Source: a virus
IMG/VR virus record: IMGVR_UViG_3300025162_000016
Location: 1 to 64,000 of that record
Direction: 5' to 3' (one strand)
Length of the DNA: 64,000 bases
The first letter of the stretch is position 1. Each line of letters begins with the position of its first letter. The notes beneath the pieces were generated by a model. It did not search any database. It saw only the letters and a list, made by a program, of their open reading frames with translations, and had not been told where the DNA came from. Below are positions 4,471-62,573 of this stretch, piece after piece. A program made the translations under genes and the position numbers.

Positions 4471-4498
4471 TTTAAACACTCATTATAAAATCAAAGAC

Positions 4499-5288: not shown

Positions 5289-5294
5289 ATTAAT

Positions 5295-9790: not shown

Positions 9791-9864
9791 ATTAACATAA
9801 AAGTCTCATATGAGAAATCCAAAAATTGTAGACGTTTTATTTTAACCGGCATATATATATGCAG

Positions 9865-10320: not shown

Positions 10321-10435
10321 TTTTTCTTGTTATTTGTAGTTGACAGAAACGACAATGTGTGTTATCAATAAAAAAAGTTTAATTGTTCCTCGTGGAACAT
10401 CTCCACGAGGAATCATATGATATATATTATAACAT

Positions 10436-10981: not shown

Positions 10982-11079
10982 ATTGACATTTAGGAAGAAT
11001 GTGATAGTCTATTAAACATTTTAAGAGAAATATAGAAAAATATTGTAATTTGCGGAAAGTTGGTTATATTTATAACCAT

Positions 11080-27102: not shown

Positions 27103-27606
27103 ATGGCATTTACATTACCATCGCCATCATTACCCGTGCCACAAGCGCCACCGCTACCTGCTGTTCCTAAAATATCGCTTCCAAAAGGACCGGCACCTTT
27201 AAAAATAAATACTATAACAGGAAAGGGAGTTCCTGGTGGATTTACGGGCACCAATAAATTAATACCGAAGGTAGCAGCCGCAGGAGTTGCATCTAATATA
27301 GCCGCAATTGCAGCTAAGGTATCTTCTATAAAAGCATCAATACCCGGTGCAACAGCGGCTCAAGCTAAGTTAGCGGGATTAAAAGCAAAGGCGTTATCTA
27401 AAATAAAATCATTAGCTAAAGCTCCGGATTTAAGCAGTAAATTGAAATTACCGGCTCCCCCTAAAATACCGTCGCCACCTGATTTTTCTAGTTTGAATCT
27501 TCCTTCGGTTCCTGCTTTGCCGTCAGTGCCGTCAGTGCCGTCAGTGCCTTCGGTTCCTGCTTTGCCGTCATTACCGTCAGTGCCGAAATTACCAACTATT
27601 GGGTAA
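27103..27606 (+). CDS. Ala/Pro-rich protein with PSVPSVPSVPALPS repeats
   Basis: Low-complexity sequence. DNA tandem repeat at 27502..27584. Confidence 0.4.
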   Translation: MAFTLPSPSLPVPQAPPLPAVPKISLPKGPAPLKINTITGKGVPGGFTGTNKLIPKVAAAGVASNIAAIAAKVSSIKASIPGATAAQAKLAGLKAKALSKIKSLAKAPDLSSKLKLPAPPKIPSPPDFSSLNLPSVPALPSVPSVPSVPSVPALPSLPSVPKLPTIG

Positions 27607-39717: not shown

Positions 39718-40359
39718 ATGGGATATAACGATAATCAAACGGTGACAATAGATGCAATTCTAACTAAAAAAGGGAGAGAATTATTGGCAAAAAATGGAAA
39801 CCTTAACATAACTAGTTTTGCGTTGGCAGATGATGAAATTGATTACTCCCTTTATCAGCCAAATCATCCAAATGGGAGTGCATTTTATGATATTGCACTG
39901 AGAAATATTCCAATATTTGAGCCGTTTACGGATGAAACACAAGTTATGAAATACAAATTAGTTACATTAAATCAAGGAGTGACGTCTATTCCTGTTATTA
40001 CGATTGCCCAAGACAAAATTAGTGTCAATCGAGATTTTACTGGTCAGATTCTTATTTCTCCTTCTACTAATCCCGCCTATAATTTAACCGCCGGATATAC
40101 CGCTATTTTGGGAAATAAAAACGTAGGAATTATTGTAGTTCAAACAAATAATTCTCTTAATTCGGTCTCAAATACAGTGCCAACATTTGCAGGCGATATT
40201 AATACCGCAAGTTCTCAGGTGGTTGTGGGAATGACATTTTTATTCGTTCCTAATTCTCAATTAGGAAGAACAACCACAACGGATTTAACGATTGTTGGAA
40301 ATGAATCGGGGGGAAGCACAAGCATCGAAGTAACTGTTATTGTTCCTACTACAAGTTAA
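39718..40359 (+). CDS. Structural protein candidate
   Basis: ORF only, synteny. Confidence 0.4.
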   Translation: MGYNDNQTVTIDAILTKKGRELLAKNGNLNITSFALADDEIDYSLYQPNHPNGSAFYDIALRNIPIFEPFTDETQVMKYKLVTLNQGVTSIPVITIAQDKISVNRDFTGQILISPSTNPAYNLTAGYTAILGNKNVGIIVVQTNNSLNSVSNTVPTFAGDINTASSQVVVGMTFLFVPNSQLGRTTTTDLTIVGNESGGSTSIEVTVIVPTTS

Positions 40360-40368
40360 AATTGATTT

Positions 40369-41508
40369 ATGATATTCAACACTTTTCAAGATACGGATAT
40401 TGTCACCGGACGAACAACTCGGGTAGCCAGCGGATTTTGGCCAGGCGGCGTGACTAATTGGAGCCAAAGTTTATTTGTGGACGATTTATGGGACTTAACC
40501 GGATCAATTGCTACACCCTCGCCTGCGTACGGGACGTCTCTTTATGATGTTCGGCGAACCATGTATTATGTGAATGTGTTTCCAAATGCGACATATCATG
40601 AACAACACGATCCTTATTTTTCTGCTACATATGGACATATTGCTGGGAGCGGTTCATTTAATATTGAAACTTCGAGTATTTTAGTAAATCCGACTAAAGC
40701 AATTTATACACAATATAAAAATCTGCTTTTGGGAACCGGAGACGTAGATGGAAAATTTAGTTTTAAAATCGGAAGTGCGGGAGGAACTACTAATGCAAAT
40801 GATATATTTGTTTTAACTTTTTCAACCTATAAAATGAAAGATCGGTTAGACGAAGGGATTTTTCAAATTTCATTTTCCGGCTCATATGGATGTAAAACTT
40901 ATATAGATGATTCTATAACTGACACTCAAGTAAAAACGGTATATAATTTAATCTCAGGATCATTAGAATCAGGTGTTGCTCCAAATGCAACATATGATGG
41001 AGTTGGATTATTTTATCCGAATAATGGTATGTTAGTTATTAATGCTCAAAAGTTAGATGATATAATTGGAATGCAGGCGTCAACTACTGTAAATTATAAT
41101 TCCGATGGTGGTGGAAAATATTATTATTCCAGTGCGTCTTTTTCAACCGATTATAGTCAAAATTCTAAAGTTATCGTGGAGGCGATTAAAGCGGCAGGAT
41201 CGAATACCTCGATTCAAATGAAAATACGAAAATCCGAATATGTTCCGGCAAGACATTATTTTATTCGCATTAAAAATAGAGACTTTAATTATAGCAACAA
41301 TCCGACATATGTTTACGATGGGACCGATGGAAACCATGCCAATGGAACTATTCGTAATAGCGATTTTGTAGACAATCCAAGAACTTATCTGACGACAATC
41401 GGATTATATAATAGTGATAATGAATTAGTAGCTGTTGCAAAATTAAGTCGCCCCGCCGTAAAAACTTTCGATAATGAAATCTTGTGCAAAGTTCGAATTG
41501 ATACGTGA
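40369..41508 (+). CDS. Structural protein with C-terminal TIGLY...LVAVAKL module
   Basis: C-terminus TTIGLYNSDNELVAVAKLSRPAVK is homologous to the C-terminus of the 47854 ORF. Confidence 0.45.
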   Translation: MIFNTFQDTDIVTGRTTRVASGFWPGGVTNWSQSLFVDDLWDLTGSIATPSPAYGTSLYDVRRTMYYVNVFPNATYHEQHDPYFSATYGHIAGSGSFNIETSSILVNPTKAIYTQYKNLLLGTGDVDGKFSFKIGSAGGTTNANDIFVLTFSTYKMKDRLDEGIFQISFSGSYGCKTYIDDSITDTQVKTVYNLISGSLESGVAPNATYDGVGLFYPNNGMLVINAQKLDDIIGMQASTTVNYNSDGGGKYYYSSASFSTDYSQNSKVIVEAIKAAGSNTSIQMKIRKSEYVPARHYFIRIKNRDFNYSNNPTYVYDGTDGNHANGTIRNSDFVDNPRTYLTTIGLYNSDNELVAVAKLSRPAVKTFDNEILCKVRIDT

Positions 41509-41592: not shown

Positions 41593-42912
41593 ATGTTAAA
41601 GCAAATTCAACGCAATAATTTTCTTACGGTGCCATTTGTTGCTTCTAAAAAATGGAATTTACGTAATATTGATAATGAGGCTTTAGCTGTTATTGATGAT
41701 GAATACATTGCATTAGAATATGTAGATTATTATGGCAATCCTCTTCTTAATCGTGATTGTAACATAACGCTTGAACAGCAACGTAATAATAATGTTATTT
41801 TTGAAATAGGTAGAAAATCTACCGGAATTTTTTATCCAGATCAGGAAGAAAAAAATGATACTGGAACTTATATTCGACTGGTATATGATCAGACAAAATT
41901 AGCTTTTTATAATGAATATAAGAATCCTTTGAAAATTTTTGGGGTGGAGAATATTGATTTTGGTAATAGTAGAATGTTTCGATATATTGCAGATGAGTTT
42001 CGAATGTTTACTCTTCCAAAAGCATTTTTTGGAGATTCTATTAAAAAGAAAAGCGTATCCTTTATGGATAATGCATTGGATGATTATGTTCAAATAAATG
42101 ATGATGGATATGGAAATTTGATAGCTACAAAAAATCTTTTTTCTAAAATTCAAGAGGTTAGAAAGTTTTCAAATGCTTATAAAGAAGGAGATGCCGCAAA
42201 TGAATGTCCCCCAGTTGTGATTCCTACAACCACTACGACTACATCTACCACGTCTACTACATCTACGACTACTGCACCGACAACAACTACTACGACTACT
42301 ACAACTACTGAAGCTCCTCCACCAACAACTACTACAACAACCAGCACAACTAGCACTACCAGTACTACAAGCACAACATCAACAACCAGTACAACTACTG
42401 AAGCTCCTCCTCCACCAACAACAACAACTACTACGACTACTACAACTACTGAAGCTCCTCCTCCTCCAACAACAACAACTACTACGACTACTACAACTAC
42501 TGAAGCTCCTCCACCAACAACTACTACTACGACTACTACAACTACCGAAGCTCCTCCACCAACAACTACCACTACCACTACGACAACTAGTACCACATCA
42601 ACGACAACAGCGCCTCCTACATGTCCTGAATGTTCCACTTACTCCGCTACAACAGTATATTGTCCGAATACTGTTTTGTTATTCTCAACACAGGCTCAGT
42701 TCTGTCAAGATTTAAAAGATGCTTGGGGATTCGGAAGCGGTCATTCTGTTTTTATTTGGAAACCAATATATGATGGTATTAATGGAGCAACGGTTATTTC
42801 TAATCTTGCTACATTATGTGGAATGACGTTTACCCAAACATCCACTACATTGGGGAATACAACTTGTGAAATAACTCCTCCCGAAACAGAGTTTCGGTTT
42901 ACTGTGCCGTAA
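41593..42912 (+). CDS. Mucin-like Thr/Pro-rich protein with Cys-containing C-terminal domain
   Basis: About 130 aa of T/S runs punctuated by EAPPP(P). Confidence 0.55.
   Translation: MLKQIQRNNFLTVPFVASKKWNLRNIDNEALAVIDDEYIALEYVDYYGNPLLNRDCNITLEQQRNNNVIFEIGRKSTGIFYPDQEEKNDTGTYIRLVYDQTKLAFYNEYKNPLKIFGVENIDFGNSRMFRYIADEFRMFTLPKAFFGDSIKKKSVSFMDNALDDYVQINDDGYGNLIATKNLFSKIQEVRKFSNAYKEGDAANECPPVVIPTTTTTTSTTSTTSTTTAPTTTTTTTTTTEAPPPTTTTTTSTTSTTSTTSTTSTTSTTTEAPPPPTTTTTTTTTTTEAPPPPTTTTTTTTTTTEAPPPTTTTTTTTTTEAPPPTTTTTTTTTSTTSTTTAPPTCPECSTYSATTVYCPNTVLLFSTQAQFCQDLKDAWGFGSGHSVFIWKPIYDGINGATVISNLATLCGMTFTQTSTTLGNTTCEITPPETEFRFTVP
42225..42617. repeat. Tandem/low-complexity coding repeats (ACT/ACA/ACG runs with GAAGCTCCTCC punctuation)
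   Basis: Five GAAGCTCCTCC(N)CCA units at roughly 50-100 bp spacing. Confidence 0.85.
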
Positions 42913-42921
42913 TAAAATAAT

Positions 42922-45165
42922 ATGTTATCTGTTATAATTCCCTGTTGGAGAGATAATTCCAATTTAATTAATACTTTACAATCGATGTATTCAACTTCCA
43001 CATCGGAATTTGAATGTATTATTGTGGACGATGCCTCTCCTATTCCTGTCATTATTCCAAATGAGTATAAAAATAAATTACGACTGATAAGAAATAATAA
43101 ACAACTTGGTTGTGGTAGATCCAGAACATTAGCCGCTAAATTAGCTACTCAGAAATATTTATTTACCATTGACAGTCATACAGACTTCGAACAGGGGTGG
43201 GATGATGTTATAAAAAAGAACTTAAAATTTGTAGATAATAATACTATTATTTATTTTCCTCTTAAAATTAGTAATACTTGGGATCGTAATTTATACGATT
43301 TTTGCGATATACGTTATGGAAGTTTAGCTTATCTATATAATCCCCGAAATAAAAACTTTTTAGGCGTAGAACAAATAGTCAATACAAAAATTGAACCTAA
43401 TTGTTTACATGCATCATATGTTATTAAACGAGATTATTTTTTATATTTAAAGGGTTTACTTGATGTAAAATATTGGGGTTCCGATGAATTAATATTAACT
43501 ATTAAAATATTAATGACAGGAGGAAACATAAAACTAATTCAAGATGTTATATTAACACACGTTGATTTACGGAGTGGAATGCACATTAGAAACTTGTATT
43601 ATATCTATTATAATATTCTACGAATTGCAAAAACACTAATGAGCGTAGAAGAGTATAATGAGTTTTTGAGTTTCATAGATAAAACTCAAATACCCGTTCA
43701 ATCATTTAAATTCTTAGATGATGATGTAGAAGAAATAGAAGAATTTAAAAAGTATTATAAAGAGATTTTTATTCACGATTTTTCTTGGTTAAAAGAAAAA
43801 TTAAATTTTGATTTATCCGACAAAAATAATCCTTTACATTACAATGCATTATTAAATCGAGATACTATAAATAAACGATTAGAAAATCAAAAATTAATAC
43901 ACAAAGAATGGCCTGTAGTCAAAAATACATGGGAAAAGGCAGACGCATTTATAAACTCGGTAGCAAGCCGAGGAATTTTATCGACAACGATGAATTTAAT
44001 TGGGATAGATAATAATTCCGGAGAAAAAGTATCGGAAGAAATTTATACTATAAGGCATAATTCTTGTTTTGGAATAACCGGTTCTAACCAATGTTCTCAA
44101 CTTAAATATGCGGAGAACTTTGGTCATTATTGCGGAGCGTGTGGATGTGGGCAAACAAAATTAGCTAAATTGGATGGAGATGGATATAGATATACAAAAC
44201 TTCATTATCCGTATCTTGAATGTCCATTAAAAAAACATGGATTTTCTAATTATATTGAAAAAAAATCAATTCTTTCAATTATTATAACTTGTTGTAATGA
44301 AAAAAAAGAGTATCTTAATAGAACAATTGATTCTATAAGAAAAACCGCTGGGAATGAACCAGAAATAATTATCATTGACGATGCTTCTATTATTCCTATT
44401 GAAAGCAATGAAAGAGTAATACGAAACGATGTTAGAATTGGGGTAGGAAGATCGAGACATAAAGGGGCTATAGCGGCTTCCAATCAATATTTACTCATTA
44501 CAGATGGTCATATGATTTTCGATAATGGGTGGTATGAAAATTTCATTGAACGGGCAAAGACAGCCAAACTAAATGACATGTTCTGTGGAACCTGTTTGGG
44601 ATTAGACGAAAAAGACAAAGATTTATCCGCCCATAAAGGAGCATACCACGGAGCAAGAATAGAGCTTTACAACGAAAAAGAAAATCAAATATTAGAAGGA
44701 AAATGGATACCCGAAAAAAGTGAAATGGAATATGAAATATCTTGCTTAATGGGAGCGTTATATTTTGTCAGGAAAGACTGGTTTTTAAAGATTCGTGGAT
44801 TATCCGATATTAAAATGTGGGGATCGGATGAGCCGTTTCTAAGTCTGAAAACACTATTATGCGGCGGACATATTTTTTTGCTAAAAAATGTGAGAGCGGG
44901 ACATGTTTTTAGAGATAGTGCGCCATACACTACAGGAGTAGAATATTTGGTCTATAATAAAATTAGAATGGCAAAAACATTATTACCGGATGAATTGGCT
45001 AATAAACTTATAGATAAATTACCGAAGGATGGTAATTTTAATGCAGCAATGAAAATGTGCGAATTGGAGAAAACTGAAATTGAAGAATATAAAACATATT
45101 ATAAATCTATTTTTATAAAAGATTTTTATGAATTTTGTAAAGAATACGATATAAAATTATTATGA
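42922..45165 (+). CDS. Protein with two tandem ppGalNAc-transferase-like (GT2/GT27-type, DxH) catalytic domains
   Basis: Domain 1: SVIIPCW...IIVDDAS...TIDSHTDF...KYWGSDELILTIKILMTGG. Domain 2: SIIITCC...IIIDDAS...ITDGHMIF...KMWGSDEPFLSLKTLLCGG. Confidence 0.6.
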   Translation: MLSVIIPCWRDNSNLINTLQSMYSTSTSEFECIIVDDASPIPVIIPNEYKNKLRLIRNNKQLGCGRSRTLAAKLATQKYLFTIDSHTDFEQGWDDVIKKNLKFVDNNTIIYFPLKISNTWDRNLYDFCDIRYGSLAYLYNPRNKNFLGVEQIVNTKIEPNCLHASYVIKRDYFLYLKGLLDVKYWGSDELILTIKILMTGGNIKLIQDVILTHVDLRSGMHIRNLYYIYYNILRIAKTLMSVEEYNEFLSFIDKTQIPVQSFKFLDDDVEEIEEFKKYYKEIFIHDFSWLKEKLNFDLSDKNNPLHYNALLNRDTINKRLENQKLIHKEWPVVKNTWEKADAFINSVASRGILSTTMNLIGIDNNSGEKVSEEIYTIRHNSCFGITGSNQCSQLKYAENFGHYCGACGCGQTKLAKLDGDGYRYTKLHYPYLECPLKKHGFSNYIEKKSILSIIITCCNEKKEYLNRTIDSIRKTAGNEPEIIIIDDASIIPIESNERVIRNDVRIGVGRSRHKGAIAASNQYLLITDGHMIFDNGWYENFIERAKTAKLNDMFCGTCLGLDEKDKDLSAHKGAYHGARIELYNEKENQILEGKWIPEKSEMEYEISCLMGALYFVRKDWFLKIRGLSDIKMWGSDEPFLSLKTLLCGGHIFLLKNVRAGHVFRDSAPYTTGVEYLVYNKIRMAKTLLPDELANKLIDKLPKDGNFNAAMKMCELEKTEIEEYKTYYKSIFIKDFYEFCKEYDIKLL

Positions 45166-45752
45166 ATGATATAGTAGAAAATATAATTAAAGAAAAACCA
45201 GAATCAATTCACAAATTAATACCATCTGAATTTTTTACGAAGTATGATTCGTATGACTATGTGTGGAGTGGAAATTGTTTTGAATGGTATTATGCCATTA
45301 GCAAAGTGATACAACCAAAAACATTTATGGAAATCGGGGTCAGATTCGCATTTAGTTTTTTACCATCTATGATTGGCGGAGATAAACTTGAATATGCTCT
45401 TGGTTGGGATTTAGAAACGTATGGAAACAATACAATAGCAATTGACAATCTTACAAAATATTATCACGGATCATCTAAATGGGAAATATTACATGTAGAT
45501 TCACAACTACAATCGGAACTTCCTCAATTTTTTGATTTAGTAAGTATTGATGGTTGTCATGAATATGATGGAAAAATTCACGATTTAAAAATGGCAATGA
45601 ATAATTCTAGATATGTTATATTAGATGATTATGATTATCATTCCGATGTTCGTAGAGCAACAGACTTCTTCTTAAAAGAATATAGAGATAGAATTGAATG
45701 GAATGAATATATAAAAACATTTAGAGGAAGTCAACTTATAAAATTTAAATGA
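45162..45752 (+). CDS. Possible class-I methyltransferase-fold protein
   Basis: FMEIGV... and LVSIDGCHEYDG...VILDDYD pattern. Weak. Confidence 0.3.
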   Translation: MNDIVENIIKEKPESIHKLIPSEFFTKYDSYDYVWSGNCFEWYYAISKVIQPKTFMEIGVRFAFSFLPSMIGGDKLEYALGWDLETYGNNTIAIDNLTKYYHGSSKWEILHVDSQLQSELPQFFDLVSIDGCHEYDGKIHDLKMAMNNSRYVILDDYDYHSDVRRATDFFLKEYRDRIEWNEYIKTFRGSQLIKFK

Positions 45753-46417
45753 AATATTTAGACTTTTTTGAAGATGTATATTATATCAATTTAGATTATA
45801 GAATTGATAGGAAAATACTATTTGAAAAAAGAGCATCTGATGTAGGAATTATTCCTAATAGATTTTCAGCAATACAACCAACTGAAATAGAATGTCAATC
45901 GATTACTCCTTTTAAAGAAATAAGAAGATTTAAAGTTGGATGTACAATGTCTCATCAGGCAGTAGTTAAAATAGCTAAAGAAAAAAATTTTTCAAATGTT
46001 TTAATATTTGAAGATGATTGTCTATTTTTGGAAGGATTTCAATCAAAAGCTCAATTATGTGTTAATGAATTAAAAAATTTACATTGGGATATTATATATT
46101 TTGGTGGAGAACCTAATAATCAATGTGTAGATATATCAGATAATTTGGTAAAAATAGAAAATGGCGGAGTTTATTGTTGTCATGCTTATGCTGTTAATAA
46201 TACATTTTATGATAAAATACTAAATGTAAATCCTCATCAGATAGATGTTATAGATATATTTATTTTAAACTATGAATGTTCACGAAGAATATATCTTTTA
46301 AGTAGAGATTTACTAGCTGTTCAAGATGGAATTTTTTCAGATTTAAAACAAGGATTAAATGAAGCTGCAGCTTCTTATATGAAAAAAGGGTGGGATAAAT
46401 ACGTTAATAAAAAATAA
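45749..46417 (+). CDS. Glycosyltransferase family 25-like
   Basis: VYYINLDYRIDR...GCTMSHQAVVKIA...VLIFEDDC. Confidence 0.55.
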   Translation: MKYLDFFEDVYYINLDYRIDRKILFEKRASDVGIIPNRFSAIQPTEIECQSITPFKEIRRFKVGCTMSHQAVVKIAKEKNFSNVLIFEDDCLFLEGFQSKAQLCVNELKNLHWDIIYFGGEPNNQCVDISDNLVKIENGGVYCCHAYAVNNTFYDKILNVNPHQIDVIDIFILNYECSRRIYLLSRDLLAVQDGIFSDLKQGLNEAAASYMKKGWDKYVNKK

Positions 46418-47070
46418 TGGAAAAAATTATACATCAAATTTGGGTTGGTAAATATAAAATGCCAAAAAGAGAAAAATCATTTGTTGAATTAATGAAACAA
46501 AAAAATTCCACATGGGAACATATGTTGTGGACAGATTTAGAAGTATTACAATTAAATATGCCCCCAAATATAAAAAATGCTTATAATTATTTCTTAAAAG
46601 ACGATGATTATGTTGCTCAAGCAGATATTTTAAGATTATTTTTAGTTTATGAATTTGGAGGTATATATCTAGATGTAGATTTTGAAACCAGAAAGGGATT
46701 TGATGAATTAAATCTTTTATCATATGATGGATTCATATGTTATCATGATACAGATATTAGAGTTGATACCATTCCTAATGGTATATTTGGTAGTAAAAAA
46801 GGTAATAAATTATTTGAATTTTTAAATAAAAATATATCATCTAATTATCATACTCCTTATGTTGTAGGAAAATTTATTAAACAATATTACAATTTAAATC
46901 TAGAAAAAACAGAACATCTTGGTGAAAATGGATTGTTAAATTATTTTAAAAGAGATAATATATTTTATATGCCATTTAATGACTTTCATAACAATTATTA
47001 TTTTCATCATGCGTTATATTCTCATTCACCAGAAATGAAACGAAAATTTAAAGAAGGAAAAATAGAATGA
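46417..47070 (+). CDS. Glycosyltransferase with DXD sugar-binding motif (GT32-like)
   Basis: IIHQIWVG...AQADILRLFLVYEFGGIYLDVDFE. Confidence 0.55.
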   Translation: MEKIIHQIWVGKYKMPKREKSFVELMKQKNSTWEHMLWTDLEVLQLNMPPNIKNAYNYFLKDDDYVAQADILRLFLVYEFGGIYLDVDFETRKGFDELNLLSYDGFICYHDTDIRVDTIPNGIFGSKKGNKLFEFLNKNISSNYHTPYVVGKFIKQYYNLNLEKTEHLGENGLLNYFKRDNIFYMPFNDFHNNYYFHHALYSHSPEMKRKFKEGKIE

Positions 47071-47798
47071 CAAATCCAAAAATTACATGCCTCACGTCTA
47101 CTTATGGTAGATTATCAAAATTAAATGAAGCAGTTTCCTGCTTTTTAGATCAAGATTATGAAAATAAAAAATTAATAATTCTCAACAATCATCCAACACC
47201 TTTAATTTGTGATTTACCACAAATTATTGTATATAATGAACCAATATATCCTACTCTAGGAGATTGTAGAAATAGATTAATAGAATTAGCAGACGGTGAT
47301 TTTATCAGGACGTGGGATGACGATGATCTTTATATGCCTTGGACACTTTCTCAAGGAATAAAATATATAAAAGATAGTCCTGCATGGAAACCAAAAAAAT
47401 CTTGGTTTTGGTTAAAAGAAAAAAATCCTGAATTGGCTGAAAACGTATTTGAAGCTGCAATATTAATTAGAATTGACATTGCTAAAAAATATGGATATTT
47501 AAAATCTTCTGGAGGAAATGAACATGAAACTTTATGTAAAGGCATAGAAAAGGAGGGCGGTTGTAGTAACGACGACCTTGGTGATTTAGCATCTTATGTA
47601 TATCGGTGGGGATGGGGAAGTTGGCATATTTCAGGAAGTTTAGGTAGCAATACCATTGAAAATAGAACAAAAACGTGGTGTGAACATAATAATGATGTAC
47701 AAAACGGAATTATAAGAAAAGTAGATTTATCCGAATATTGGAGTCATTTCCCAACGTGGAATCCAAATTTACGAGCTTTCAACAAACAACTAGTTTAA
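47067..47798 (+). CDS. GT2-like glycosyltransferase
   Basis: ITCLTSTYGR...FLDQDYENKKLIILNN...WDDDDLY. Confidence 0.4.
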   Translation: MTNPKITCLTSTYGRLSKLNEAVSCFLDQDYENKKLIILNNHPTPLICDLPQIIVYNEPIYPTLGDCRNRLIELADGDFIRTWDDDDLYMPWTLSQGIKYIKDSPAWKPKKSWFWLKEKNPELAENVFEAAILIRIDIAKKYGYLKSSGGNEHETLCKGIEKEGGCSNDDLGDLASYVYRWGWGSWHISGSLGSNTIENRTKTWCEHNNDVQNGIIRKVDLSEYWSHFPTWNPNLRAFNKQLV

Positions 47799-47853: not shown

Positions 47854-50214
47854 ATGTATATTGAAGTCCACAATGCAAATTACGGATATGCCACTGCCAC
47901 GTATGGGGATTACGTTGCCATCGGTAATCCAGTTTTCCTACGATATACCGGGAGCACTCCTGATGTATACTATACCGGATCGGTAGATGTTTTCCGATAT
48001 AATAAAACAACCGATCAACACGATTTAATTAACACTCTTTTTGTTCACGGGGCGGGATTAGAAACCCTATTAGCCACCGAACTAATTGATCCGTTATTAC
48101 ATACAGAATATGGATCTTACTGGTCGGCAGACTTGGACATCTGGATCGACAGAGAGAAATATTATTCTTCTATAGAAGATGGGACAGGTGTTTCTCTGGA
48201 TATGTATGCCAAAACACTGGTAGCGGGAGTTCCATATTATAGAGTAAGATTTAAGACCGATTATGTTGAATTATTTGCTTCGGGATCCGCCGTCGATATT
48301 TATGATTTCACACGAAAAGAGACAATTCCCGGCACAGACCCTTATGTTGGTTCTTTGATGAATCCACATAGTTATATAACTGAATCATTTGGAATAGGAG
48401 TGGGAATAAATAGCGAATGGATAGCAGTAGGATCTCCACTAGTAAGTTCTTCCTGCGGAATGGTATATGTTTATCAAAATATCTCAACTGGAAGTAATAA
48501 TTTTAGTTGGTCTCTTTTTCAAACAATAACTTCTCCAAATCCCATGCCAGAGCAGCAGTTTGGACGAAGTGTAAAATTAAATAAACAAAGTGGATATTAC
48601 AGTTCTAGTATGGTGGTTGGATGTGGACTATCTTCTTCAAATGAAGCTTATTATTTTGAGTTTATTAGCGGAAGTTGGATTTCCAGTTATACTTTTAAAC
48701 CAACCACCGATATTTACCCTTTAACATTCGGCAATTATCCTCCGTATGCTCCGACGATGAGTCTAAATAGTGGGTTTGGATACGATGTCTCTTTATTTAA
48801 TAATTCGGTTATTATTGGGGCGTATGCAGATAGATTGGTATACGAGTATACCGGCTCCTCTCAATTTCAACAGGGTGCCGTGTATATATTTGAAAAATGT
48901 CATGACGTGCCGTTATCCAAGTTTCGATTGGCGTTAAAAACATATGGAACCCCCCTCACATTAAGAAACAATAGAATGGGATTTTCGGTTGATATGTTTG
49001 ATAAATATGCCGTTGCCGGTATACCCAAAATAGATTCATTAGATATGACGCCTTGTTTCGTTCAAGGTACATTAGGGCAACTTCACTATTGCGATCAAGC
49101 ATTGGAAGACATGTTGCAAGGTCAAGCTATGTTACTTGAAAAGAACACTTCTTCTTTAGATTGGGAAATTATAAATGTTTATCAAAAGAAAAAACGCTTT
49201 TTAAGTCCGCATCGACACTTCGGATGGGATGTTTCCGTTGACGGAAGGTCTATGGTCGTGGGTGCCCCCATGTATTATAGCGGTTCCAGATTTATTAATA
49301 TTGAGACAACTGCCAGCAGTGGAGTTACCATTGATGATATCGCAGGTAAAGCATATATTTATAATTTTCCTAATCTCCGACCCGAATTTCATGTTGGAAA
49401 CGTATTTTACCGAAATGGAAAAATTGTTATAATGACGTCCGGATCGGCATTCAATGGACTGTTTTTAAATCCCGTAAGCAATATAAATTATGAATATGAT
49501 TTAACTTACAACAGTCAAAGAACAATTCATGAACAACAGATTTTATGTAATGTGGAACCGGGAGAATTTAATGTTAGTACAAATCCATCCGCAATAATGT
49601 TACCTTCTTCGACATTAGATCTAAATAAAAATGGGAAATTTGATTTTCAAGATGTAGACGTTCTTTTAAGATATTTACAATATAAACAAGATTCAACCAC
49701 CGACTGGAGTTCTTCTATCTTGTCCGCCGATGATGAAATAAGTTTTTATAACTATAACGCATCACAGTGGAATAACACCGATTCAGTATGGAGTTCGAGT
49801 TTTTATAGATTTGAAAACGTCGATACCACTTTTATAGATTCTTTGGATATCAATTTCGATAATAAAATTAATGGCTCAGATATGATCGTATTGTGGAAAT
49901 ATTTTTCAAATAGATTGGAAGAAAAGAATTACAATACCTGTGTTAATATTAACTGTAAAAGAAAATTGGTAAGTGAAGCGATTAGTTATCTAAATTCAAT
50001 TTCAAAAAGACATTATCTTCCACAAATTTCTCCGGAGTTTTTTAACTATGATACTTTAAGCGCAGGGGATAAAACCGGATCATTTCTTGCACCGATGGTA
50101 TCTACAATTGGGCTATTTGACGGGCTAGATCTAGTTGCAGTGGCCAAATTAGGATCGCCGGTCAAACTCCCTAAAACATTATCAACAAATTTTTGCATCA
50201 AAATGGATTATTGA
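47854..50214 (+). CDS. FG-GAP-like beta-propeller protein with dockerin/EF-hand-like repeats and a TIGLF...LVAVAKL C-terminal module
   Basis: Repeated FG..V.......VVGAP-type motifs (FGWDVSVDGRSMVVGAP and others). DLNKNGKFDFQDVDVLLRYL and DINFDNKINGSDMIVLWKYF. Confidence 0.5.
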   Translation: MYIEVHNANYGYATATYGDYVAIGNPVFLRYTGSTPDVYYTGSVDVFRYNKTTDQHDLINTLFVHGAGLETLLATELIDPLLHTEYGSYWSADLDIWIDREKYYSSIEDGTGVSLDMYAKTLVAGVPYYRVRFKTDYVELFASGSAVDIYDFTRKETIPGTDPYVGSLMNPHSYITESFGIGVGINSEWIAVGSPLVSSSCGMVYVYQNISTGSNNFSWSLFQTITSPNPMPEQQFGRSVKLNKQSGYYSSSMVVGCGLSSSNEAYYFEFISGSWISSYTFKPTTDIYPLTFGNYPPYAPTMSLNSGFGYDVSLFNNSVIIGAYADRLVYEYTGSSQFQQGAVYIFEKCHDVPLSKFRLALKTYGTPLTLRNNRMGFSVDMFDKYAVAGIPKIDSLDMTPCFVQGTLGQLHYCDQALEDMLQGQAMLLEKNTSSLDWEIINVYQKKKRFLSPHRHFGWDVSVDGRSMVVGAPMYYSGSRFINIETTASSGVTIDDIAGKAYIYNFPNLRPEFHVGNVFYRNGKIVIMTSGSAFNGLFLNPVSNINYEYDLTYNSQRTIHEQQILCNVEPGEFNVSTNPSAIMLPSSTLDLNKNGKFDFQDVDVLLRYLQYKQDSTTDWSSSILSADDEISFYNYNASQWNNTDSVWSSSFYRFENVDTTFIDSLDINFDNKINGSDMIVLWKYFSNRLEEKNYNTCVNINCKRKLVSEAISYLNSISKRHYLPQISPEFFNYDTLSAGDKTGSFLAPMVSTIGLFDGLDLVAVAKLGSPVKLPKTLSTNFCIKMDY

Positions 50215-50590: not shown

Positions 50591-51004
50591 ATGTCGGATT
50601 TAGGACATTGGATGCTTCCTGCTGATGCATTACAGGATATTCCTGTAGATTCCATTGGATTTGTTTATTGTATTACTAATAAAACTACTAATAAAAAATA
50701 CATTGGCAAAAAACTATTAGAAAATAAAAAGAAAAGAAAGCCATTGAAAGGTAGGGTTAATTCTAGAAGATATAAAGTAGAATCTAATTGGAAAGAATAT
50801 ACCGGATCATCTCCTATATTAAATGCAGATATAGAAAAATGCGGCAAAGAAAACTTTATATTTGATATTTTATCTTTTCAACCATCTAAACTTCTGTTAG
50901 CATATTGGGAAACTAAAACTATTATAGATCGAAATGCTATTTTTAGTAATGAATACTATAATGAAGTTTGTAACTTACGAATACGCAATAGAAAATCACA
51001 ATGA
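50591..51004 (+). CDS. GIY-YIG endonuclease-like protein
   Basis: GFVYCITNKTTNKKYIGKK motif. Confidence 0.5.
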   Translation: MSDLGHWMLPADALQDIPVDSIGFVYCITNKTTNKKYIGKKLLENKKKRKPLKGRVNSRRYKVESNWKEYTGSSPILNADIEKCGKENFIFDILSFQPSKLLLAYWETKTIIDRNAIFSNEYYNEVCNLRIRNRKSQ

Positions 51005-51303
51005 AATCCGGTTATTTATATATTGTTATAAATCCTGCCTTTCCGTTATGGTGCAAAATAGGCATCACTACCAATCTTAAAGAACGAATTTATTTGTACC
51101 AAACTTGTGATCCCCACCGAGGATACAAACTGGTGTATTCCCTTTATCATCCGGATTACAAAGAAGCTGAGAAAAAAATAAAAAAAGCTATAAAACCATT
51201 CGCAAAATCAATTAAAAACGAATGGGCCGAAATTGATTTGGAAATGTGTAAAAGTCGCCTTCAAGAGTCGCTCGAATCCTATCAATCTGGCGAGTGGATG
51301 TGA
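51001..51303 (+). CDS. T5orf172/GIY-YIG-superfamily domain protein
   Basis: GYLYIVINPAFPLWCKIGITTNLKERI...NEWAEIDL. Confidence 0.45.
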   Translation: MKSGYLYIVINPAFPLWCKIGITTNLKERIYLYQTCDPHRGYKLVYSLYHPDYKEAEKKIKKAIKPFAKSIKNEWAEIDLEMCKSRLQESLESYQSGEWM

Positions 51304-52530
51304 AAACTCCCCTACCCTAAAGGGATAGGGGCTTCTATGCTGTTCACAGCAAGAGATTGTCTTCCCAATCTCAAAATGTTTCTTGCCGCATTTATGTCTC
51401 TATCCATAGATAGACCACACGAACAATTGAAAACTCGATCTTTCAACTCCATTATCGTTCTCGTTCCACATTGGCTGCAAGTTTGACTAGTATAGGCAGG
51501 GTTGATTTTTATCAATATCTTATCAGCATATGCTGCTTTATAAGATATTATGTTTCCAAACATACTCCACGCTACATCATTTATCTGTTTACTACACCAT
51601 CTTTTCTTTAACAATTTATTTGTTTCAATATCTTCTATAAATATAAAATCATATCTGTTTAATATACCATTTGTTGTTTTGTGAAGAAAATCATTTCTCT
51701 TATTTACAATTCTCTCATGAATTCTTCTAGCAACTTTCCATTTTTTCTGTCTCTGTTTTTTTGCTAATTGCTTTTGCTCTTTCTCAAAAAATCGTGGATT
51801 GTTTATTTTAGTTCCATCATCAAAAGTGGCAAAAGATAGAATCCCAACATCTATTCCAGTTTCTTTACCTGTTCTTCTAAATTGTTTTTTATTATTTGGA
51901 ATATCGCAACAAGATATAGAAACGAACCATTTATTTGTTGGGGTTTTGGCTATGGTTATAGTTTTTGGAGTTCCAAATAATTTTCTATGTAATACAATAT
52001 CAACTTCTCCTACTTTTGATAATAATAATTTATTTTCTTTTATTTCGCACCCATTATTATATTGCGGGTAACAAATAGAAAAATATCTACCTTTTCCACG
52101 AAATCTAGGATATCCCGGAGTATCTCCATTTTTCAATCTTCTAAAAAATCCTTGGTATGCTAAATCAACTCTTATTGCTACATTTTGTAAACATTGAGAA
52201 TATACAGAAGTTAGTTGGGGATATGTTTCTTTTAAAATTGGTATTTGTTTGATTGAATCATAACAAGACACAGACTTCTTTTCTTTTTCCCAACTATTCT
52301 TTCTAATTTCAAGTAAATGATTATAGAGAAACCTACAAGTTTCCAACTGGTTATTCAGGATTGTCTCCTGTTTCTTTGTTGGATATATTCTGTATTTATA
52401 TGTAAGTTTCATTTTCTACATATATGTATATCAAAGAATGTGAAAACGTTGATTTATTTTGAATTATTTTTCTCTTGGTCGAATTCATCCCCAAGGCTAA
52501 AGCCGTTGGGGTTTTCTTCTCCCAAGATTA
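51301..52530 (-). mobile_element. IS200/IS605-family element carrying only tnpB (copy 2). Boundaries are approximate
   Basis: The RE (reverse complement GAAGCCCCTATCCCtttaGGGTAGGGGAGTTTTCA) abuts the stop codon of the 51001 ORF. LE hairpin at 52489..52511 followed by GGGGATGAAT. Confidence 0.65.
51312..52412 (-). CDS. tnpB: TnpB (IS605 OrfB-type), paralog of 7596..8672
   Basis: MKLTYKYRIYPTKKQ...LETCRFLYNHLLEIRKN. GIDVGI, FIEDI, YTSQTCSQCG, DRDINAARNI. Confidence 0.85.
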   Translation of the reverse strand: MKLTYKYRIYPTKKQETILNNQLETCRFLYNHLLEIRKNSWEKEKKSVSCYDSIKQIPILKETYPQLTSVYSQCLQNVAIRVDLAYQGFFRRLKNGDTPGYPRFRGKGRYFSICYPQYNNGCEIKENKLLLSKVGEVDIVLHRKLFGTPKTITIAKTPTNKWFVSISCCDIPNNKKQFRRTGKETGIDVGILSFATFDDGTKINNPRFFEKEQKQLAKKQRQKKWKVARRIHERIVNKRNDFLHKTTNGILNRYDFIFIEDIETNKLLKKRWCSKQINDVAWSMFGNIISYKAAYADKILIKINPAYTSQTCSQCGTRTIMELKDRVFNCSCGLSMDRDINAARNILRLGRQSLAVNSIEAPIPLG

Positions 52531-59921: not shown

Positions 59922-60569
59922 ATGTATAAGAATAAATCGAATATTTCCATAGTAAAATCTTATTTGGCAGGGGAACGTCCATTTGTGAAGGTAGGATATT
60001 CCGTACCCGAAATTAAACGAGAAATCGGTTCTACCTGGGTTGATAATCAGGATGTAAAATGGGAACAAAAAGATGGATATAAAACCCGAATCAATGAACA
60101 AGCTAATATGATTAAAGCGGCAATGAAACGAAAATGCAAATGTGGACAGGAAATTCAATATGGAAGTAGATTGGATGAAGTATTCTTTTCTAAAACAGGT
60201 AAATGCTTTGATTGTATTATTAAAGAAGAAACCGAATACCGAGTTTTAGGAGTCTATCCTCAATACGAAGCTTTCAAACTTCTATCGAATTATTTAGGAT
60301 TTTTAGAAGATATGAAACAGAAAATTGAAGATAGTATAAAATATTTTCAAACAGAAGATGGAACTTTGCAAATCTTATGTAATAGTGAAGGATTTTTGGA
60401 AAAATTCAAAGGAATAAATACCGAAGAATTATTGGTTTCTGCTAAAAATGATTTGTCCGAAATTACAAAGTTAATTTCAAAAACGTCCAAAGATAAAAAG
60501 AAAGCCAAAAAGACATTTAATGAGGATTTAAAAAAGACCCGAAAGAATTTAACTTCTAGCATAAAATGA
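59922..60569 (+). CDS. Hypothetical protein (small-terminase position)
   Basis: Immediately upstream of and overlapping terL. CKCG...CFDC zinc ribbon. Function not recognisable. Confidence 0.3.
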   Translation: MYKNKSNISIVKSYLAGERPFVKVGYSVPEIKREIGSTWVDNQDVKWEQKDGYKTRINEQANMIKAAMKRKCKCGQEIQYGSRLDEVFFSKTGKCFDCIIKEETEYRVLGVYPQYEAFKLLSNYLGFLEDMKQKIEDSIKYFQTEDGTLQILCNSEGFLEKFKGINTEELLVSAKNDLSEITKLISKTSKDKKKAKKTFNEDLKKTRKNLTSSIK

Positions 60570-61159
60570 GCGATAATACAGTAAAAAGATCTCTTCAAGA
60601 GATCATTAAAGAAGAATATAAAAAATGCTTAATAGATCCGGTATATTTCATGCGGAAATATGTCAAAATTCAGCATCCTATTCGTGGAACTATAGCGTTC
60701 GATCTTTATCCGTTTCAAGCATCTACGCTGAAAGATTTTGCCGATAATGATTTCAGCATCGTATTGAAATCTCGCCAAATGGGAATATCCACACTAGTAG
60801 CGGCATATTCTCTGTGGCTTATGATTTTTCATAAAGATAAAAATGTACTTATCATTTCTATTAAACAAGACGTATCTAAAGAAATTGTATCAAAAATTCG
60901 ATTTGCAAATGATAATCTTCCGTCTTGGATGAGGGTAGAATGCAAAGAAGATAATCGACTATCACTTAAATTAGCCAATGGATCACAAGTATCAGCGGTC
61001 TCATCTGCTACAACCGCAGGGAGATCCGCAGCACTTAGTCTTTTAGTTTTAGATGAATGTTGCGAAAAATCTACAGTGGTGTATATTCGAAACAAGAAAA
61101 CCGGCGAAACAAAACCGGTAAAAATTGGTGAATTATATGAATCAAATATATACGTGTAA
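60566..61159 (+). CDS. terL: Terminase large subunit, N-terminal fragment ending in a 33-aa split-intein N-piece
   Basis: Walker A-like KSRQMGIST, Walker B LLVLDE. CCEKSTVVYIRNKKTGETKPVKIGELYE then a stop. Confidence 0.75.
   Translation: MSDNTVKRSLQEIIKEEYKKCLIDPVYFMRKYVKIQHPIRGTIAFDLYPFQASTLKDFADNDFSIVLKSRQMGISTLVAAYSLWLMIFHKDKNVLIISIKQDVSKEIVSKIRFANDNLPSWMRVECKEDNRLSLKLANGSQVSAVSSATTAGRSAALSLLVLDECCEKSTVVYIRNKKTGETKPVKIGELYESNIYV
61058..61156 (+). mobile_element. Split intein, N-fragment (33 aa)
   Basis: Begins with Cys directly after LDE. T4-type terminases read DECAFI, which is restored by joining to CAFIEK at 62906. Confidence 0.6.
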
Positions 61160-62573
61160 ACTGGATAATAAAGAATGCAAATCGCAGTCAGAATTTGTGG
61201 TTCATTTGAAAAAATGTCATGGATTTAATACGAAAAGTTATTATGATTCGGTGATTAAACCCGGATTAAATGGGAAATGTTTAAATTGTACAAAAGATAC
61301 GATTTTTTTAGGATTGCGGGAGGGATATCAAAAATTTTGTTCTAATAAATGCCGCAGTGAATATTTTAAAAATCACAAGGAGTTGCAAGAGTTACGAACA
61401 CAAAAAATAAAAAAAACTAAGTTAGAAAAATATGGAGACGAAAATTATAATAATGTAGATAAAATGCAGAAAACATGTTTGAAAAAATATGGGAAAATAA
61501 CAGCTACTGGCACCGAAGAATATAATAAAAAACATCGTGAAACTTGTTTAAAGAGATATGGAGTGGAACATCATGCTCAATCCGACGAAGTAAAAAATAA
61601 GTCTAAACAGACATGTTTAAATCATTATGGAGTGGAATATACGTTACAATCAAAGGAAATAAGAGATAGGATAGATAATACTGTTAATGAAAAATATGGC
61701 GGATATACATTGGCATCGAAGACATTATCGGAGAAAATGAAAAATACAATGATAGAGAAGTATGGCGTGGAAAATGCGCTACAAAGTGATGTCATAAAAG
61801 AAAAGCAACGGGCAACCAATCGGGAGAGATATGGAGCATCTGTGCCAACTCAAAATAAAGATGTTATTTTAAAAATGAAGAAAAGTAACATAAAAAAATA
61901 TGGAATTGAGAATACTTTTAATCTTATACAGACAAAAAACACTTTTCTGGAAAAATATAACGTTATAAACCCATCTCAAATACCGGCAGTTCAAGAAAAA
62001 ATTAAGGAAACGTGTCTGGAGAAATATGGTAGTAATACTTTTTTTGCCTCGGATTATGCAAAGGAAAAAATTAAAAATACATGCATGGAACGATATGGAG
62101 TGTCCTGTGTTTTATTGCTCCCCGAAATAAAAGAAAAATCGAAGCAAACCAACATTTTAAAGTATGGAGTTGCACACCCAATGCAAAATTCAATAATTAG
62201 AAACAAAGTAATGTCGGCTATAAATAGAAAGTCGTATAAATTACAACAATATATGACCATTTTTAACGATAATATTGTATATCAATCTCTTCCGGAACTT
62301 GCATTTATTAAGCTGTGCGAATCGAGGGGACTTCGAATTTTAAATGGACCGGTTTTACCGTATATTTTAGATGAAAAAAACAGAATGTATTATTCAGACT
62401 TTTTAATTTCCGACACGAAAAGTCAGCGAATAGTAGAAATTAAAAGAAAGCATGAATGGTGGTTTTCCGGATTAAAATCGGGAGAAATTAAAGCAAAAAC
62501 GAAATGCGCAATAAAATTCAGTAAAGAAAATGGATATTTGCCGTATAAAATCATTTTCGAAAATAAGATATGA
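61137..62573 (+). CDS. Free-standing nuclease between the terL halves (Zn fingers + ~12 tandem ~23-aa repeats + PD-(D/E)xK-like C-terminus)
   Basis: Repeats of type .TCL.KYGVE...QS. C-terminal YYSDFLI...IVEIKRK (D...ExK). Alternative start at 61125. Confidence 0.55.
   Translation: MNQIYTCKLDNKECKSQSEFVVHLKKCHGFNTKSYYDSVIKPGLNGKCLNCTKDTIFLGLREGYQKFCSNKCRSEYFKNHKELQELRTQKIKKTKLEKYGDENYNNVDKMQKTCLKKYGKITATGTEEYNKKHRETCLKRYGVEHHAQSDEVKNKSKQTCLNHYGVEYTLQSKEIRDRIDNTVNEKYGGYTLASKTLSEKMKNTMIEKYGVENALQSDVIKEKQRATNRERYGASVPTQNKDVILKMKKSNIKKYGIENTFNLIQTKNTFLEKYNVINPSQIPAVQEKIKETCLEKYGSNTFFASDYAKEKIKNTCMERYGVSCVLLLPEIKEKSKQTNILKYGVAHPMQNSIIRNKVMSAINRKSYKLQQYMTIFNDNIVYQSLPELAFIKLCESRGLRILNGPVLPYILDEKNRMYYSDFLISDTKSQRIVEIKRKHEWWFSGLKSGEIKAKTKCAIKFSKENGYLPYKIIFENKI

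Follow-up and report, generated by a model that had tools for sequence, protein, structure and literature searches.

Described systems and the present locus

Glycosylation of virions by enzymes that a phage itself encodes is documented for the mycobacteriophages Che8, Corndog, and Myrna, in which, according to the summaries of Freeman et al. (2023) in PMC12619734 and PMC13445384, phage cassettes glycosylate the capsid and the tail tube, the acceptors being the C-termini of the capsid and tail-tube subunits. In the literature that we reached, experimental evidence for virion glycosylation by phage enzymes is confined to the mycobacteriophages. Here we describe a candidate system in a 64,000-nt stretch of viral DNA (IMG/VR record IMGVR_UViG_3300025162_000016, positions 1 to 64,000; hereafter the window), in which a gene for a protein with a mucin-like Thr/Pro tract (41593-42912, +) is followed by the gene for a tandem glycosyltransferase (GT) resembling the polypeptide GalNAc-transferases of family GT27 (42922-45165, +) and by four more sugar-modifying genes ending at 47798. 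Comparison with related loci indicates that this cassette probably carries out a cytoplasmic, mucin-type-like O-glycosylation of the phage's own tail-periphery protein, which bears a Thr-rich stalk.

The mycobacteriophage cassettes are the closest functional precedent for this locus. In both cases phage GTs and an O-methyltransferase are encoded within the structural block, and in the mycobacteriophages the glycans are O-linked to the phage's own virion proteins. The Corndog genes gp35-38 lie in the structural operon (PMC4351075); gp35 matches TylF/Methyltransf_24, gp37 is GT2-like, gp38 is GT25-like, and gp36 has no assigned family. The enzymes of the window, however, share only these broad Pfam families with Corndog (best pairwise E 7e-5 over 48 aa), and no GT27-like counterpart was found in Corndog by hhalign or tblastn. 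Gp36, considered as a GT27-like homologue, was rejected (hhalign probability 0.9%). The presumed acceptor differs as well, since in the window the only strong Pro/Thr/Ser (PTS) tract lies within an accessory protein of 439 aa, whereas the summaries cited above place the mycobacteriophage glycans at subunit C-termini. The mycobacteriophages infect Actinobacteria, whereas the window belongs to an AT-rich, probably aquatic myovirus lineage.

In sequence both catalytic domains, and in predicted fold domain 2 as well, are closest to the eukaryotic GT27 enzymes (human GalNAc-T2, T4, T10, and T12, Drosophila PGANT9, and Toxoplasma GalNAc-T3). Members of this family start the glycosylation of mucins in animals, and mucin-type O-glycosylation by GT27 is generally taken to be a mark of eukaryotes. 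Shared with it are the GT-A fold, the DxH motif, the downstream metal-binding His in G-H-x-F-R, and the W-G start of the Gal/GalNAc-T motif, and the presumed acceptor is likewise a long, Thr/Pro-rich tandem-repeat tract. Unlike GT27, the phage enzyme has no ricin-type (CBM13) lectin domain, N-terminal membrane anchor, or stem; its sugar-contacting motif is WGSDE instead of WGGEN; it joins two catalytic domains in one chain through a novel Cys-rich module; its gene and that of the presumed acceptor are neighbours in one operon; and it would act in the bacterial cytoplasm, not in the Golgi lumen.

A further parallel is offered by the bacterial serine-rich-repeat adhesins (GspB/Fap1-type loci), where adjacent dedicated GTs (GtfA/B and accessory GTs) glycosylate a Ser/Thr stalk in the cytoplasm, and the Pro/Thr linkers of secreted glycoside hydrolases are comparable. 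As in these adhesins, a long low-complexity Ser/Thr stalk would stand between an anchor and a distal binding domain. However, the initiating enzyme is a GT27-like GT-A protein here and the GT-B proteins GtfA/B there, the phage locus has no accessory Sec system, and the product would be part of a phage particle rather than of a bacterial surface. Within the limited coverage of our search, the literature described no phage in which a GT27-like gene and a poly-Thr tract form a pair, which is not proof of absence. The pairing of tract and enzyme is pointing to a largely undescribed route by which phage particles may be coated with sugar.

A tandem GT27-like glycosyltransferase

The open reading frame (ORF) at 42922-45165 (+) encodes 747 aa with two GT-A domains, separated by a module that we call MID:

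42922..43896, +, GT domain 1, a divergent GT-A domain resembling polypeptide GalNAc-transferases (ppGalNAc-T-like, GT27-like), with DDAS36, DSH84-86, and WGSDE185
43897..44262, +, MID module, an uncharacterised Cys-rich segment of ~120 aa (aa ~326-447) without a Pfam match
44260..45165, +, GT domain 2, a conserved ppGalNAc-T-like (GT27-like) catalytic domain, the proposed initiating polypeptide O-glycosyltransferase

The first-pass annotation, which was based on the sequence without database searches, had recognized two catalytic domains with DDAS, DxH, and W-G-S-D-E blocks and had proposed that they are ppGalNAc-transferase-like. The motifs are located at aa 36 and 486 (DDAS), aa 84 (DSH) and 528 (DGH), and aa 185 (WGSDELILTIKILMTGG) and 633 (WGSDEPFLSLKTLLCGG), the last two being blocks of the form WGSDE..L..K.L..GG, and the two halves are paralogous (31% identity over 292 aa, E 8e-41). 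The proposed identity is borne out by sequence, profile, and, for domain 2, structure searches, which place both domains nearest to GT27 and not in the polysaccharide GT2 families. When the full 747-aa protein was compared with all PDB sequences using phmmer, 16 polypeptide GalNAc-transferases ranked first (best 2e-14, GalNAc-T2), and the alignment with GalNAc-T2 spans the Gal/GalNAc-T motif and RaGHVFR (RvGHVFR in GalNAc-T2). Domain 1, which shows 22-32% identity to any relative fetched, had ppGalNAc-Ts for all of its top 12 matches when searched alone (best 3.6e-8). A profile of 18 family members, representing domain 2, matched 16 GT27 sequences along the entire catalytic domain (5e-30 to 3e-19); the families next in rank (PglI, TagF, DPMS) scored 2.8e-7 or weaker and over the nucleotide-binding (N-terminal) half only. 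AlphaFold2 (AF2) modelled domain 2 with a predicted local distance difference test score (pLDDT) >90, and a Foldseek search of the PDB with this model returned GT27 structures for all of the top 50 (human, mouse, fly, and Toxoplasma), down to 1.7e-20. In the AF2 model of the full tandem protein, domain 1 and MID have low confidence, in the case of domain 1 because the aligned relatives carry a different, GT2-type N-terminal domain that is not homologous there. GT27 is, therefore, the closest GT-A family for both domains as judged by sequence, and for domain 2 also as judged by predicted structure, at an identity of ~20-25%. Pfam labels both halves ‘Glycos_transf_2’, which is not discriminating because this model also covers the N-terminal half of genuine GalNAc-transferases; PHROGs and NCBIfam provided generic or far sub-threshold GT labels only.

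The residues D487, D528, H530, G634, E637, G648, G649, G660, H661, F663, and R664 are invariant in the 18 sequences. In GalNAc-T2 the Mn2+ ligands are D224-x-H226 and a third His, H359. The phage enzyme has the corresponding metal site of GT27: DSH84-86 and DGH528-530 supply the DxH motif, H661 in GHVFR aligns with the GHVFR of T2, and domain 1 retains a His (THV) at the position aligned to the third metal-binding His. The W-G-G-E-N of GT27 aligns as W-G-S-D-E in both domains, with S635 near-invariant and the acidic residue shifted by one position, and donor specificity is therefore not transferable from GT27. No Ricin_B_lectin match was obtained with Pfam, the chain ending ~85 aa past the catalytic His in a helical segment. 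At the other end, the match to β1 of the catalytic domain begins as early as residues 2-3, which leaves no room for a membrane anchor or stem, and the type II membrane topology of GT27 is thus absent. We name the enzyme GT27-like and assign no donor sugar to it.

Full-length relatives of the tandem GT number ~17 and are all metagenomic; those in IMG/VR were found by alignment-derived patterns, a single-sequence scan with the tandem GT having given none. With tblastn neither GT domain retrieved anything meaningful from 50,697 GenBank phage genomes. The commonest architecture among the relatives is GT2(‘DDDD’)-MID-GT27-like, this fusion of a DDDD-type GT2 domain occurring in 15 or more of them. 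Their N-terminal GT2 domain resembles the product of the window gene at 47067-47798 (38% identity to the N-terminal domain of P0006, E 4e-12), and in the lineage of the window a second, divergent GT27-like copy replaces it. MID follows the pattern …SCFG…C…FCGxCGCG…LAxLD…YTKLHYPxLECPLKKxGFSN, has six invariant Cys, and was detected in 289 representative proteins (E<1e-3). Its fusion partners are GT9, GT2, GT25, PF11397 GlcNAc, GT90, GT29, GT7C, Methyltransf_24, and sulfotransferase domains, i.e., glycan-building or glycan-modifying enzymes only, and it may be a targeting or assembly domain.

The Thr/Pro-rich carrier protein

The Thr-rich ORF (41593-42912, +) encodes 439 aa in three parts:

41593..42207, +, N-terminal domain of ~205 aa (N-domain), presumed virion anchor, with 44 homologues
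42208..42618, +, mucin-like Pro/Thr/Ser tract of 137 aa (aa 206-342), proposed O-glycan acceptor and stalk
42619..42912, +, C-terminal Cys-containing distal domain (‘knob’) of ~97 aa, without a Pfam match

The runs of T and S punctuated by EAPPP(P), reported in the first-pass annotation, extend over these 137 aa, with EAPPP(P) present five times (aa 240, 270, 287, 304, and 319). The tract is composed of 88 T, 23 P, 11 S, 7 A, and 5 E (64% Thr, 17% Pro, 8% Ser), so that Thr and Ser make up 72%; composition and repeats are those of a mucin-like (PTS) domain. At the DNA level it is a degenerate 45-nt unit in 7.6 copies with 76% matches (Tandem Repeats Finder). No second strong tract of this kind exists in any frame of the 64-kb window, and none is present in ~0.5 Mb of related control loci that lack the GT. 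The tract is far beyond chance. The antisense ORF at 42177-42638 (-), 153 aa of poly-Val/Gly, is the mirror image of the Thr/Pro codons and was rejected as a gene. A weaker Pro/Ser-rich segment (PSPPDFSSLNLPSVPALPSVPSVPS, 60% P/S/T) occurs at 27469-27545 of the window, in a 167-aa ORF of the tail block (27103-27606), and could be a second, minor acceptor or merely a linker.

Across the relatives the composition of the tract is kept and its sequence is not (T10EAPPP, (TP)n, T21PEP, PPVTxPP). Its length varies even between otherwise near-identical genomes: the protein has 439 aa in the window versus 442 aa in the related loci L005-L008, the longer allele having an extra STT plus a Pro/Thr shift. 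In four related lineages the contigs end inside the equivalent tract and, consequently, tract genes are probably under-assembled in metagenomes.

The N-domain is conserved, with 37 invariant columns in the alignment, while the C-terminal extensions within its family vary: none, FN3, Ig, or a Thr/Pro tract with a small Cys-rich end domain. A Cys-rich folded domain follows the tract in the window and in L003, L004, L009, L011, L047, and L049; L048 has a different, β-rich domain instead. The distal Cys-rich domains of different lineages are highly divergent and gave no convincing alignment. In the N-terminus of the carrier as read (MLKQIQRNNFLTVPF…; no predictor run) no signal peptide is evident. 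Because of the position of its gene in a conserved slot (see below) and the FN3 and Ig variants of its family, we infer that the carrier is a tail-periphery virion protein.

Coupling of tract and enzyme

The link between enzyme and substrate that had been suggested from the window itself gains comparative support from co-occurrence, from joint gain or loss, and from unrelated tract carriers. Among 28 de-duplicated, assessable loci with an N-domain gene, a GT accompanies the tract in 4 of 4 tract loci versus 0 of 24 tract-less loci (Fisher p = 4.9e-5). Each of the tract loci (the window, L009, L011, and L049) has a MID-containing GT gene <=2 kb downstream, whereas the 24 tract-less loci have no GT or methyltransferase (MT) gene of the cassette within 6 kb. 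In a neighbour-joining tree of the N-domain the tract genes are scattered and have tract-less sisters (WIN/L010, with WIN denoting the window, L009/L023, L049/L026, and L018/L031), which indicates that tract and GTs were jointly gained or lost several times.

The reverse comparison gave the same picture. In each of the 7 lineages whose GT is >=42% identical to domain 2 (the window, L001/2, L003, L004, L047, L048, and L049), a Thr/Pro-tract ORF lies upstream and ends within ~10-900 nt of the GT; the contigs of L001/2, L003, and L004 break inside the tract. L047 is a lambda-like siphovirus with gpM/L/K/J adjacent, and its carrier of 640 aa has a poly-T66 stretch and a Cys-rich end, the GT beginning 7 nt later. 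The carrier of L048 combines FN3, ~90 Thr, and a β-rich domain, and that of L049 an N-domain, a 120-aa tract, and a Cys domain. Those of L047 and L048 are unrelated to the N-domain family, which brings the number of unrelated carrier proteins to three, so the GT follows the tract and not the carrier. A polypeptide acceptor is suggested by this genomic coupling to Thr tracts alone.

In L009 the carrier with a (TP)n tract is directly followed by a MID-bearing enzyme of a different family (PF11397 ‘Glycosyltransferase (GlcNAc)’, 2.3e-57). We take PF11397 to be the polypeptide GlcNAc-transferase family GT60 of CAZy, presumably comprising polypeptide α-GlcNAc-transferases such as the Skp1 GlcNAc-transferase of Dictyostelium and the enzymes of mucin-type O-GlcNAc addition in Dictyostelium and Trypanosoma. 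Domain 1 of the window enzyme also has a weak PF11397 match (3.1e-4), but the window domains match GT27 structures far better than PF11397. Near a distant GT27-like gene, L064 encodes (4179-5642) a 487-aa protein with small Cys-rich modules and long (PPTTA)n and (PTPS/APTP)n linkers, which by its sequence is a multi-stalk architecture.

Downstream sugar-modifying genes

The tandem GT gene is followed by:

45162..45752, +, Methyltransf_24-family methyltransferase, proposed sugar O-methyltransferase, whose homologues carry PF13578
45749..46417, +, GT25-family glycosyltransferase, proposed glycan extension (PF01755, 1.8e-12)
46417..47070, +, GT32-type (DXD, Gly_transf_sug) glycosyltransferase, proposed glycan extension (PF04488, 5.3e-11)
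47067..47798, +, GT2-type (‘DDDD’) glycosyltransferase (PF00535, 4.8e-8)

These families agree with the earlier calls of GT25-like, GT32-like (DXD), GT2-like, and methyltransferase-fold genes. For the MT the assignment comes from its homologues, >200 at 66-85% identity, many with PF13578 and one named O-methyltransferase YrrM; the ORF has no Pfam match of its own, and a PDB sequence search with it was empty. The genes indeed overlap or abut, the junctions within 41593-47798 being a 9-nt gap and then overlaps of 4, 4, 1, and 4 nt.

GT25, DDDD-type GT2, and Methyltransf_24 genes accompany the GT27-like gene in L001 and L003 too, with the GT25 gene lying next to it, while its companions in L048 are other GT2-type genes and Methyltransf_24. 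The relatives also hold GT29-, GT6-, GT9-, and GT90-like enzymes and a cytidylyltransferase-like (CTP-transferase) gene. A widespread sub-cassette on AT-rich phage contigs (L069-L073) has the order MT(196 aa)-GT32-265 aa-(epimerase)-GT2-(APS kinase), and its GT32 is 34% identical to that of the window. In L071 it comes directly after two proteins (652 and 796 aa) with Thr/Ser tracts. In L069 the protein upstream of it contains PKD and CHU_C domains, a hint that the host may belong to the Bacteroidota. As judged from these sequence relationships, the cluster is composite.

Genomic context

The window represents a divergent, uncultured myovirus with a T4-like architecture (baseplate wedge gene, SbcCD-like nuclease, and T4-type terminase) of an AT-rich lineage. 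It carries the auxiliary genes PstS and PhoH, which suggests an aquatic phage in a phosphate-limited setting. Our guess for the host, based on the nearest cultured relatives, is Bacteroidota; a scan of genome contigs gave just four contigs of metagenome-assembled genomes at 25-27% identity, and no host was identified from these. The cassette is flanked by:

39718..41508, +, two conserved upstream structural genes (213 aa and 379 aa), which define the syntenic slot
47854..50214, +, FG-GAP/dockerin-like structural protein (PF14312, 1.4e-13), right boundary of the GT insertion

The genes for the 213-aa and 379-aa proteins precede the N-domain gene in nearly all related loci, and homologues of the 379-aa protein occur in myoviruses of Flavobacterium, Rhodothermus, and Microcystis. 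The corresponding slot of Flavobacterium phage immuto has the baseplate wedge gene on one side and annotated tail fiber/tail spike genes on the other. The GT and O-methyltransferase genes of the window are thus embedded in the virion structural block, between baseplate-region genes and the large FG-GAP gene. In several tract-less relatives (e.g., L040, L013, L026, L021, and L010) the FG-GAP gene starts ~2-65 nt after the N-domain gene, and in others it is found up to ~6 kb downstream. The close spacing in the former implies that the GT block of ~4.9 kb (42922-47798) is an insertion relative to them.

A scan of the region revealed promoter-like sites at chance level (63 vs 64 expected) and terminator-like sites not above chance (8 vs 5.5 expected). 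A GC-rich hairpin with a T-run (CCGAAACAGAGTTTCGG TTTACTG; 42881-42897, +) lies inside the last codons of the Thr-rich ORF, before the GT gene, where it could limit how far transcription of a strongly expressed structural gene runs on into the enzyme genes. BLAST searches with the region, at the nucleotide and the protein level, against the 50,697 GenBank phages yielded a chance match of 118 nt and trivial N-terminal GT2 matches only.

Proposed function and alternative explanations

What the present analysis shows directly is the set of sequence features, the likeness of the enzyme to GT27 in sequence and fold, the assignment of the genes to families, their operon-like packing, and the evolutionary coupling between tract and GT. 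From these we infer a scheme that covers the relation of enzyme and substrate, the identity of the sugar, the order of the steps, the location in the virion, and the biological role. The 439-aa protein would consist of an anchor domain, a Thr/Pro stalk of 137 aa, and a small Cys-rich distal knob. Late in infection the soluble tandem enzyme, with two GT27-like, presumably Mn2+-dependent DxH GT-A domains linked by the Cys-rich MID, would place a first sugar, by analogy most likely a HexNAc (N-acetylhexosamine), on the Thr hydroxyls of the tract, using a host nucleotide-sugar donor. The GT25, GT32, and GT2 enzymes would lengthen the glycan and the Methyltransf_24 enzyme would cap it by O-methylation. 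The densely glycosylated tract would form a stiff, extended, protease-resistant stalk, ~30 nm long at ~0.25 nm per residue, which would keep the distal knob clear of the tail or baseplate, in the role of an accessory adhesin or a spacer. An architecture of anchor, tract, and knob seems to fit a glycosylated spacer or stalk better than the adhesion to mucus or the shielding of the virion that had been suggested at first.

A number of observations weigh against this scheme, the evidence for which is comparative only. The proposed virion location derives from synteny and domain architecture; the AF2 model of the N-domain (15-sequence alignment) had a pLDDT of 37 and was unusable, and a search of the 50,697 GenBank phages returned no cultured phage with a homologue of the carrier. 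With WGSDE in place of WGGEN and with no lectin domain, the enzyme may follow donor and acceptor rules other than those of GT27. The neighbour-joining tree that underlies the repeated joint gain or loss is without support values. At 33-38% identity, the more distant GT27-like relatives in many cases lack a tract next to them or come with only short Thr linkers in large proteins 6-9 kb away, and L011 has a tract but just a GT2-MID gene before the sequence changes. GT25, GT32, and GT2 enzymes are typical of lipopolysaccharide (LPS) or capsule synthesis. Finally, the MT-GT32-GT2 sub-cassette is common in places where a GT27-like gene is absent, so that a single pathway for all five enzymes does not follow. 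The interpretation given in the first-pass annotation was supported in each of its parts that computation could address, and none of it was refuted, but to call the pathway self-contained goes too far: the cluster of GT and MT genes is there and the five enzymes are contiguous, but MT-GT32-GT2 is separately mobile, and since no genes for nucleotide-sugar synthesis are present in the cluster, host donors are required.

The separate mobility of these genes is what one would expect if only the tandem GT27-like enzyme modified the tract, while the MT, GT25, GT32, and GT2 served another virion protein, a host envelope glycan, or a small molecule and merely shared an insertion hotspot and late expression. 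The wide distribution of the sub-cassette, with its >200 MT homologues, and the free shuffling of accessory enzymes among the relatives (GT29, GT6, GT9, GT90, and CTP-transferase) fit such a division of labour. We nevertheless regard it as unlikely: in L071 the sub-cassette also follows Thr/Ser-tract proteins and thus tracks PTS-type proteins, the five genes of the window overlap or abut, the GT27-like gene is accompanied by GT25, DDDD-type GT2, and Methyltransf_24 in L001 and L003 and by GT2-types and Methyltransf_24 in L048, and the DDDD-type GT2 is fused to MID and the GT27-like domain in the 15 or more relatives mentioned above.

More improbable still is a target other than protein, i.e., host LPS, capsule, teichoic acid, or phage DNA, with roles in superinfection exclusion, receptor masking, or anti-restriction DNA hypermodification, and with the tract as an unglycosylated flexible linker. 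GT2, GT25, and GT32 are classic envelope-glycan families, and there is weak, sub-threshold NCBIfam similarity to WcaA, TuaG, and PgaC, although these scores are far under the curated cut-offs. Pro/Thr linkers can work unglycosylated. This explanation, however, leaves the strict and repeated co-gain and co-loss of tract and GT, including that with unrelated carriers, unexplained; the enzymes nearest to the GT in sequence, and to domain 2 in predicted fold as well, are ones that act on polypeptides; and the cluster sits inside the tail gene block and contains no flippase, polymerase, or GtrA/B-type genes. As to DNA, GT-A enzymes that glycosylate it are abundant in viromes, and they have an R…DDD…EDY/F motif (JGT/TarP-like) and lie near C5-MT, 5mYOX, and ThyS (bioRxiv 10.1101/2023.12.21.572611). 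We rejected glycosylation of DNA, since the window enzyme differs in motifs and fold from the DNA-hypermodifying GTs (GT-A with R…DDD…EDY/F or T4 βGT-like GT-B) and no C5-MT, 5mYOX, or ThyS partner genes were present among the window ORFs scanned.

The Thr-rich protein might also be glycosylated without being part of the virion, as a soluble mucin-like decoy or matrix released upon lysis or displayed on the infected cell. The failure to predict a fold for the N-domain, the lack of a homologue in cultured phages, and a virion placement derived from gene order and domain architecture leave some room for this, but we consider it very improbable given the conserved slot between the baseplate-region genes and the large FG-GAP structural protein. 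Tract-less members of the family bear FN3 or Ig domains, and Fraser et al. are said to have reported in 2006 that domains of these types occur in phages almost exclusively on structural proteins. Moreover, the homologous neighbourhood in phage immuto leads into annotated tail fiber and tail spike genes, and the N-terminus as read is, again, without an evident signal peptide. Glycosylation of a tail-periphery protein on its Thr-rich stalk is the explanation that we prefer.

A more general proposal is that tailed phages hold a true counterpart of mucin-type O-glycosylation, comprising GT27/GT60-like cytoplasmic Thr-O-glycosyltransferases, dedicated mucin-like tail stalks, and MID as the module that recruits glycan-building enzymes. 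We put this forward tentatively, as an idea with slightly less than an even chance of being right. MID would then bring a mix-and-match set of GT9, GT2, GT25, GT29, GT90, methyl-, and sulfotransferases to the same acceptor, for which our expectation is similarly divided and leans a little towards doubt.

Other features of the window

Three TnpB/IS605-OrfB-type genes with a Cas12f1-like TNB domain are present, at 7596-8672 (+), 11050-12890 (+), and 51312-52412 (-), an unusually high number for a 64-kb piece of a phage genome; a serine-resolvase gene comes before the second, which is IS607-like in this respect. At 60566-62573 (+) an N-terminal fragment (197 aa) of the T4-type terminase large subunit is followed by an overlapping ORF of 482 aa with DUF7487, homologues of which occur in several copies in Lak and other huge phages and bear the annotation of endonuclease-domain proteins. 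Judging from this arrangement, a mobile endonuclease may have split the terminase gene. Just past the structural/GT block, at 50591-51303 (+), lie two adjacent homing-endonuclease-type genes (SegE-like GIY-YIG and T5orf172/MUG113), with equivalents at the same place in L001, L003, and L004. Auxiliary genes at 207-707, 5295-6170, 9859-10981, and 16848-17636 form a set with a DSP-type protein phosphatase, a PstS-like phosphate-binding protein, a GNAT acetyltransferase, an ART-PolyVal ADP-ribosyltransferase, and PhoH.

Implications

If the proposed function is correct, virion glycosylation extends beyond the mycobacteriophages to a new host range, a new acceptor design, i.e., a dedicated mucin-like stalk, and a new initiating enzyme family. 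Under the more general proposal made above, a hallmark enzyme family of eukaryotic mucin synthesis would have a deep, mobile reservoir in phages, which would bear on the origin of both GT27 and GT60, and the compact pair of enzyme and acceptor would offer a means of making mucin-like glycoproteins in bacteria. Since the phage GT27-like family is genetically tied to Thr-rich acceptors, the origin and the minimal needs of mucin-type glycosylation become testable in a two-gene bacterial system. MID, with nine or more kinds of glycan-modifying enzymes as fusion partners, is a candidate for a new targeting or assembly domain. As the tracts break metagenome assemblies, the system is probably under-sampled in a systematic way. 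Tail appendages coated with glycans would influence adsorption, the stickiness of particles, protease resistance, and immune recognition, and would thus be relevant to the ecology of phages in aquatic particles and mucus as well as to phage therapy.

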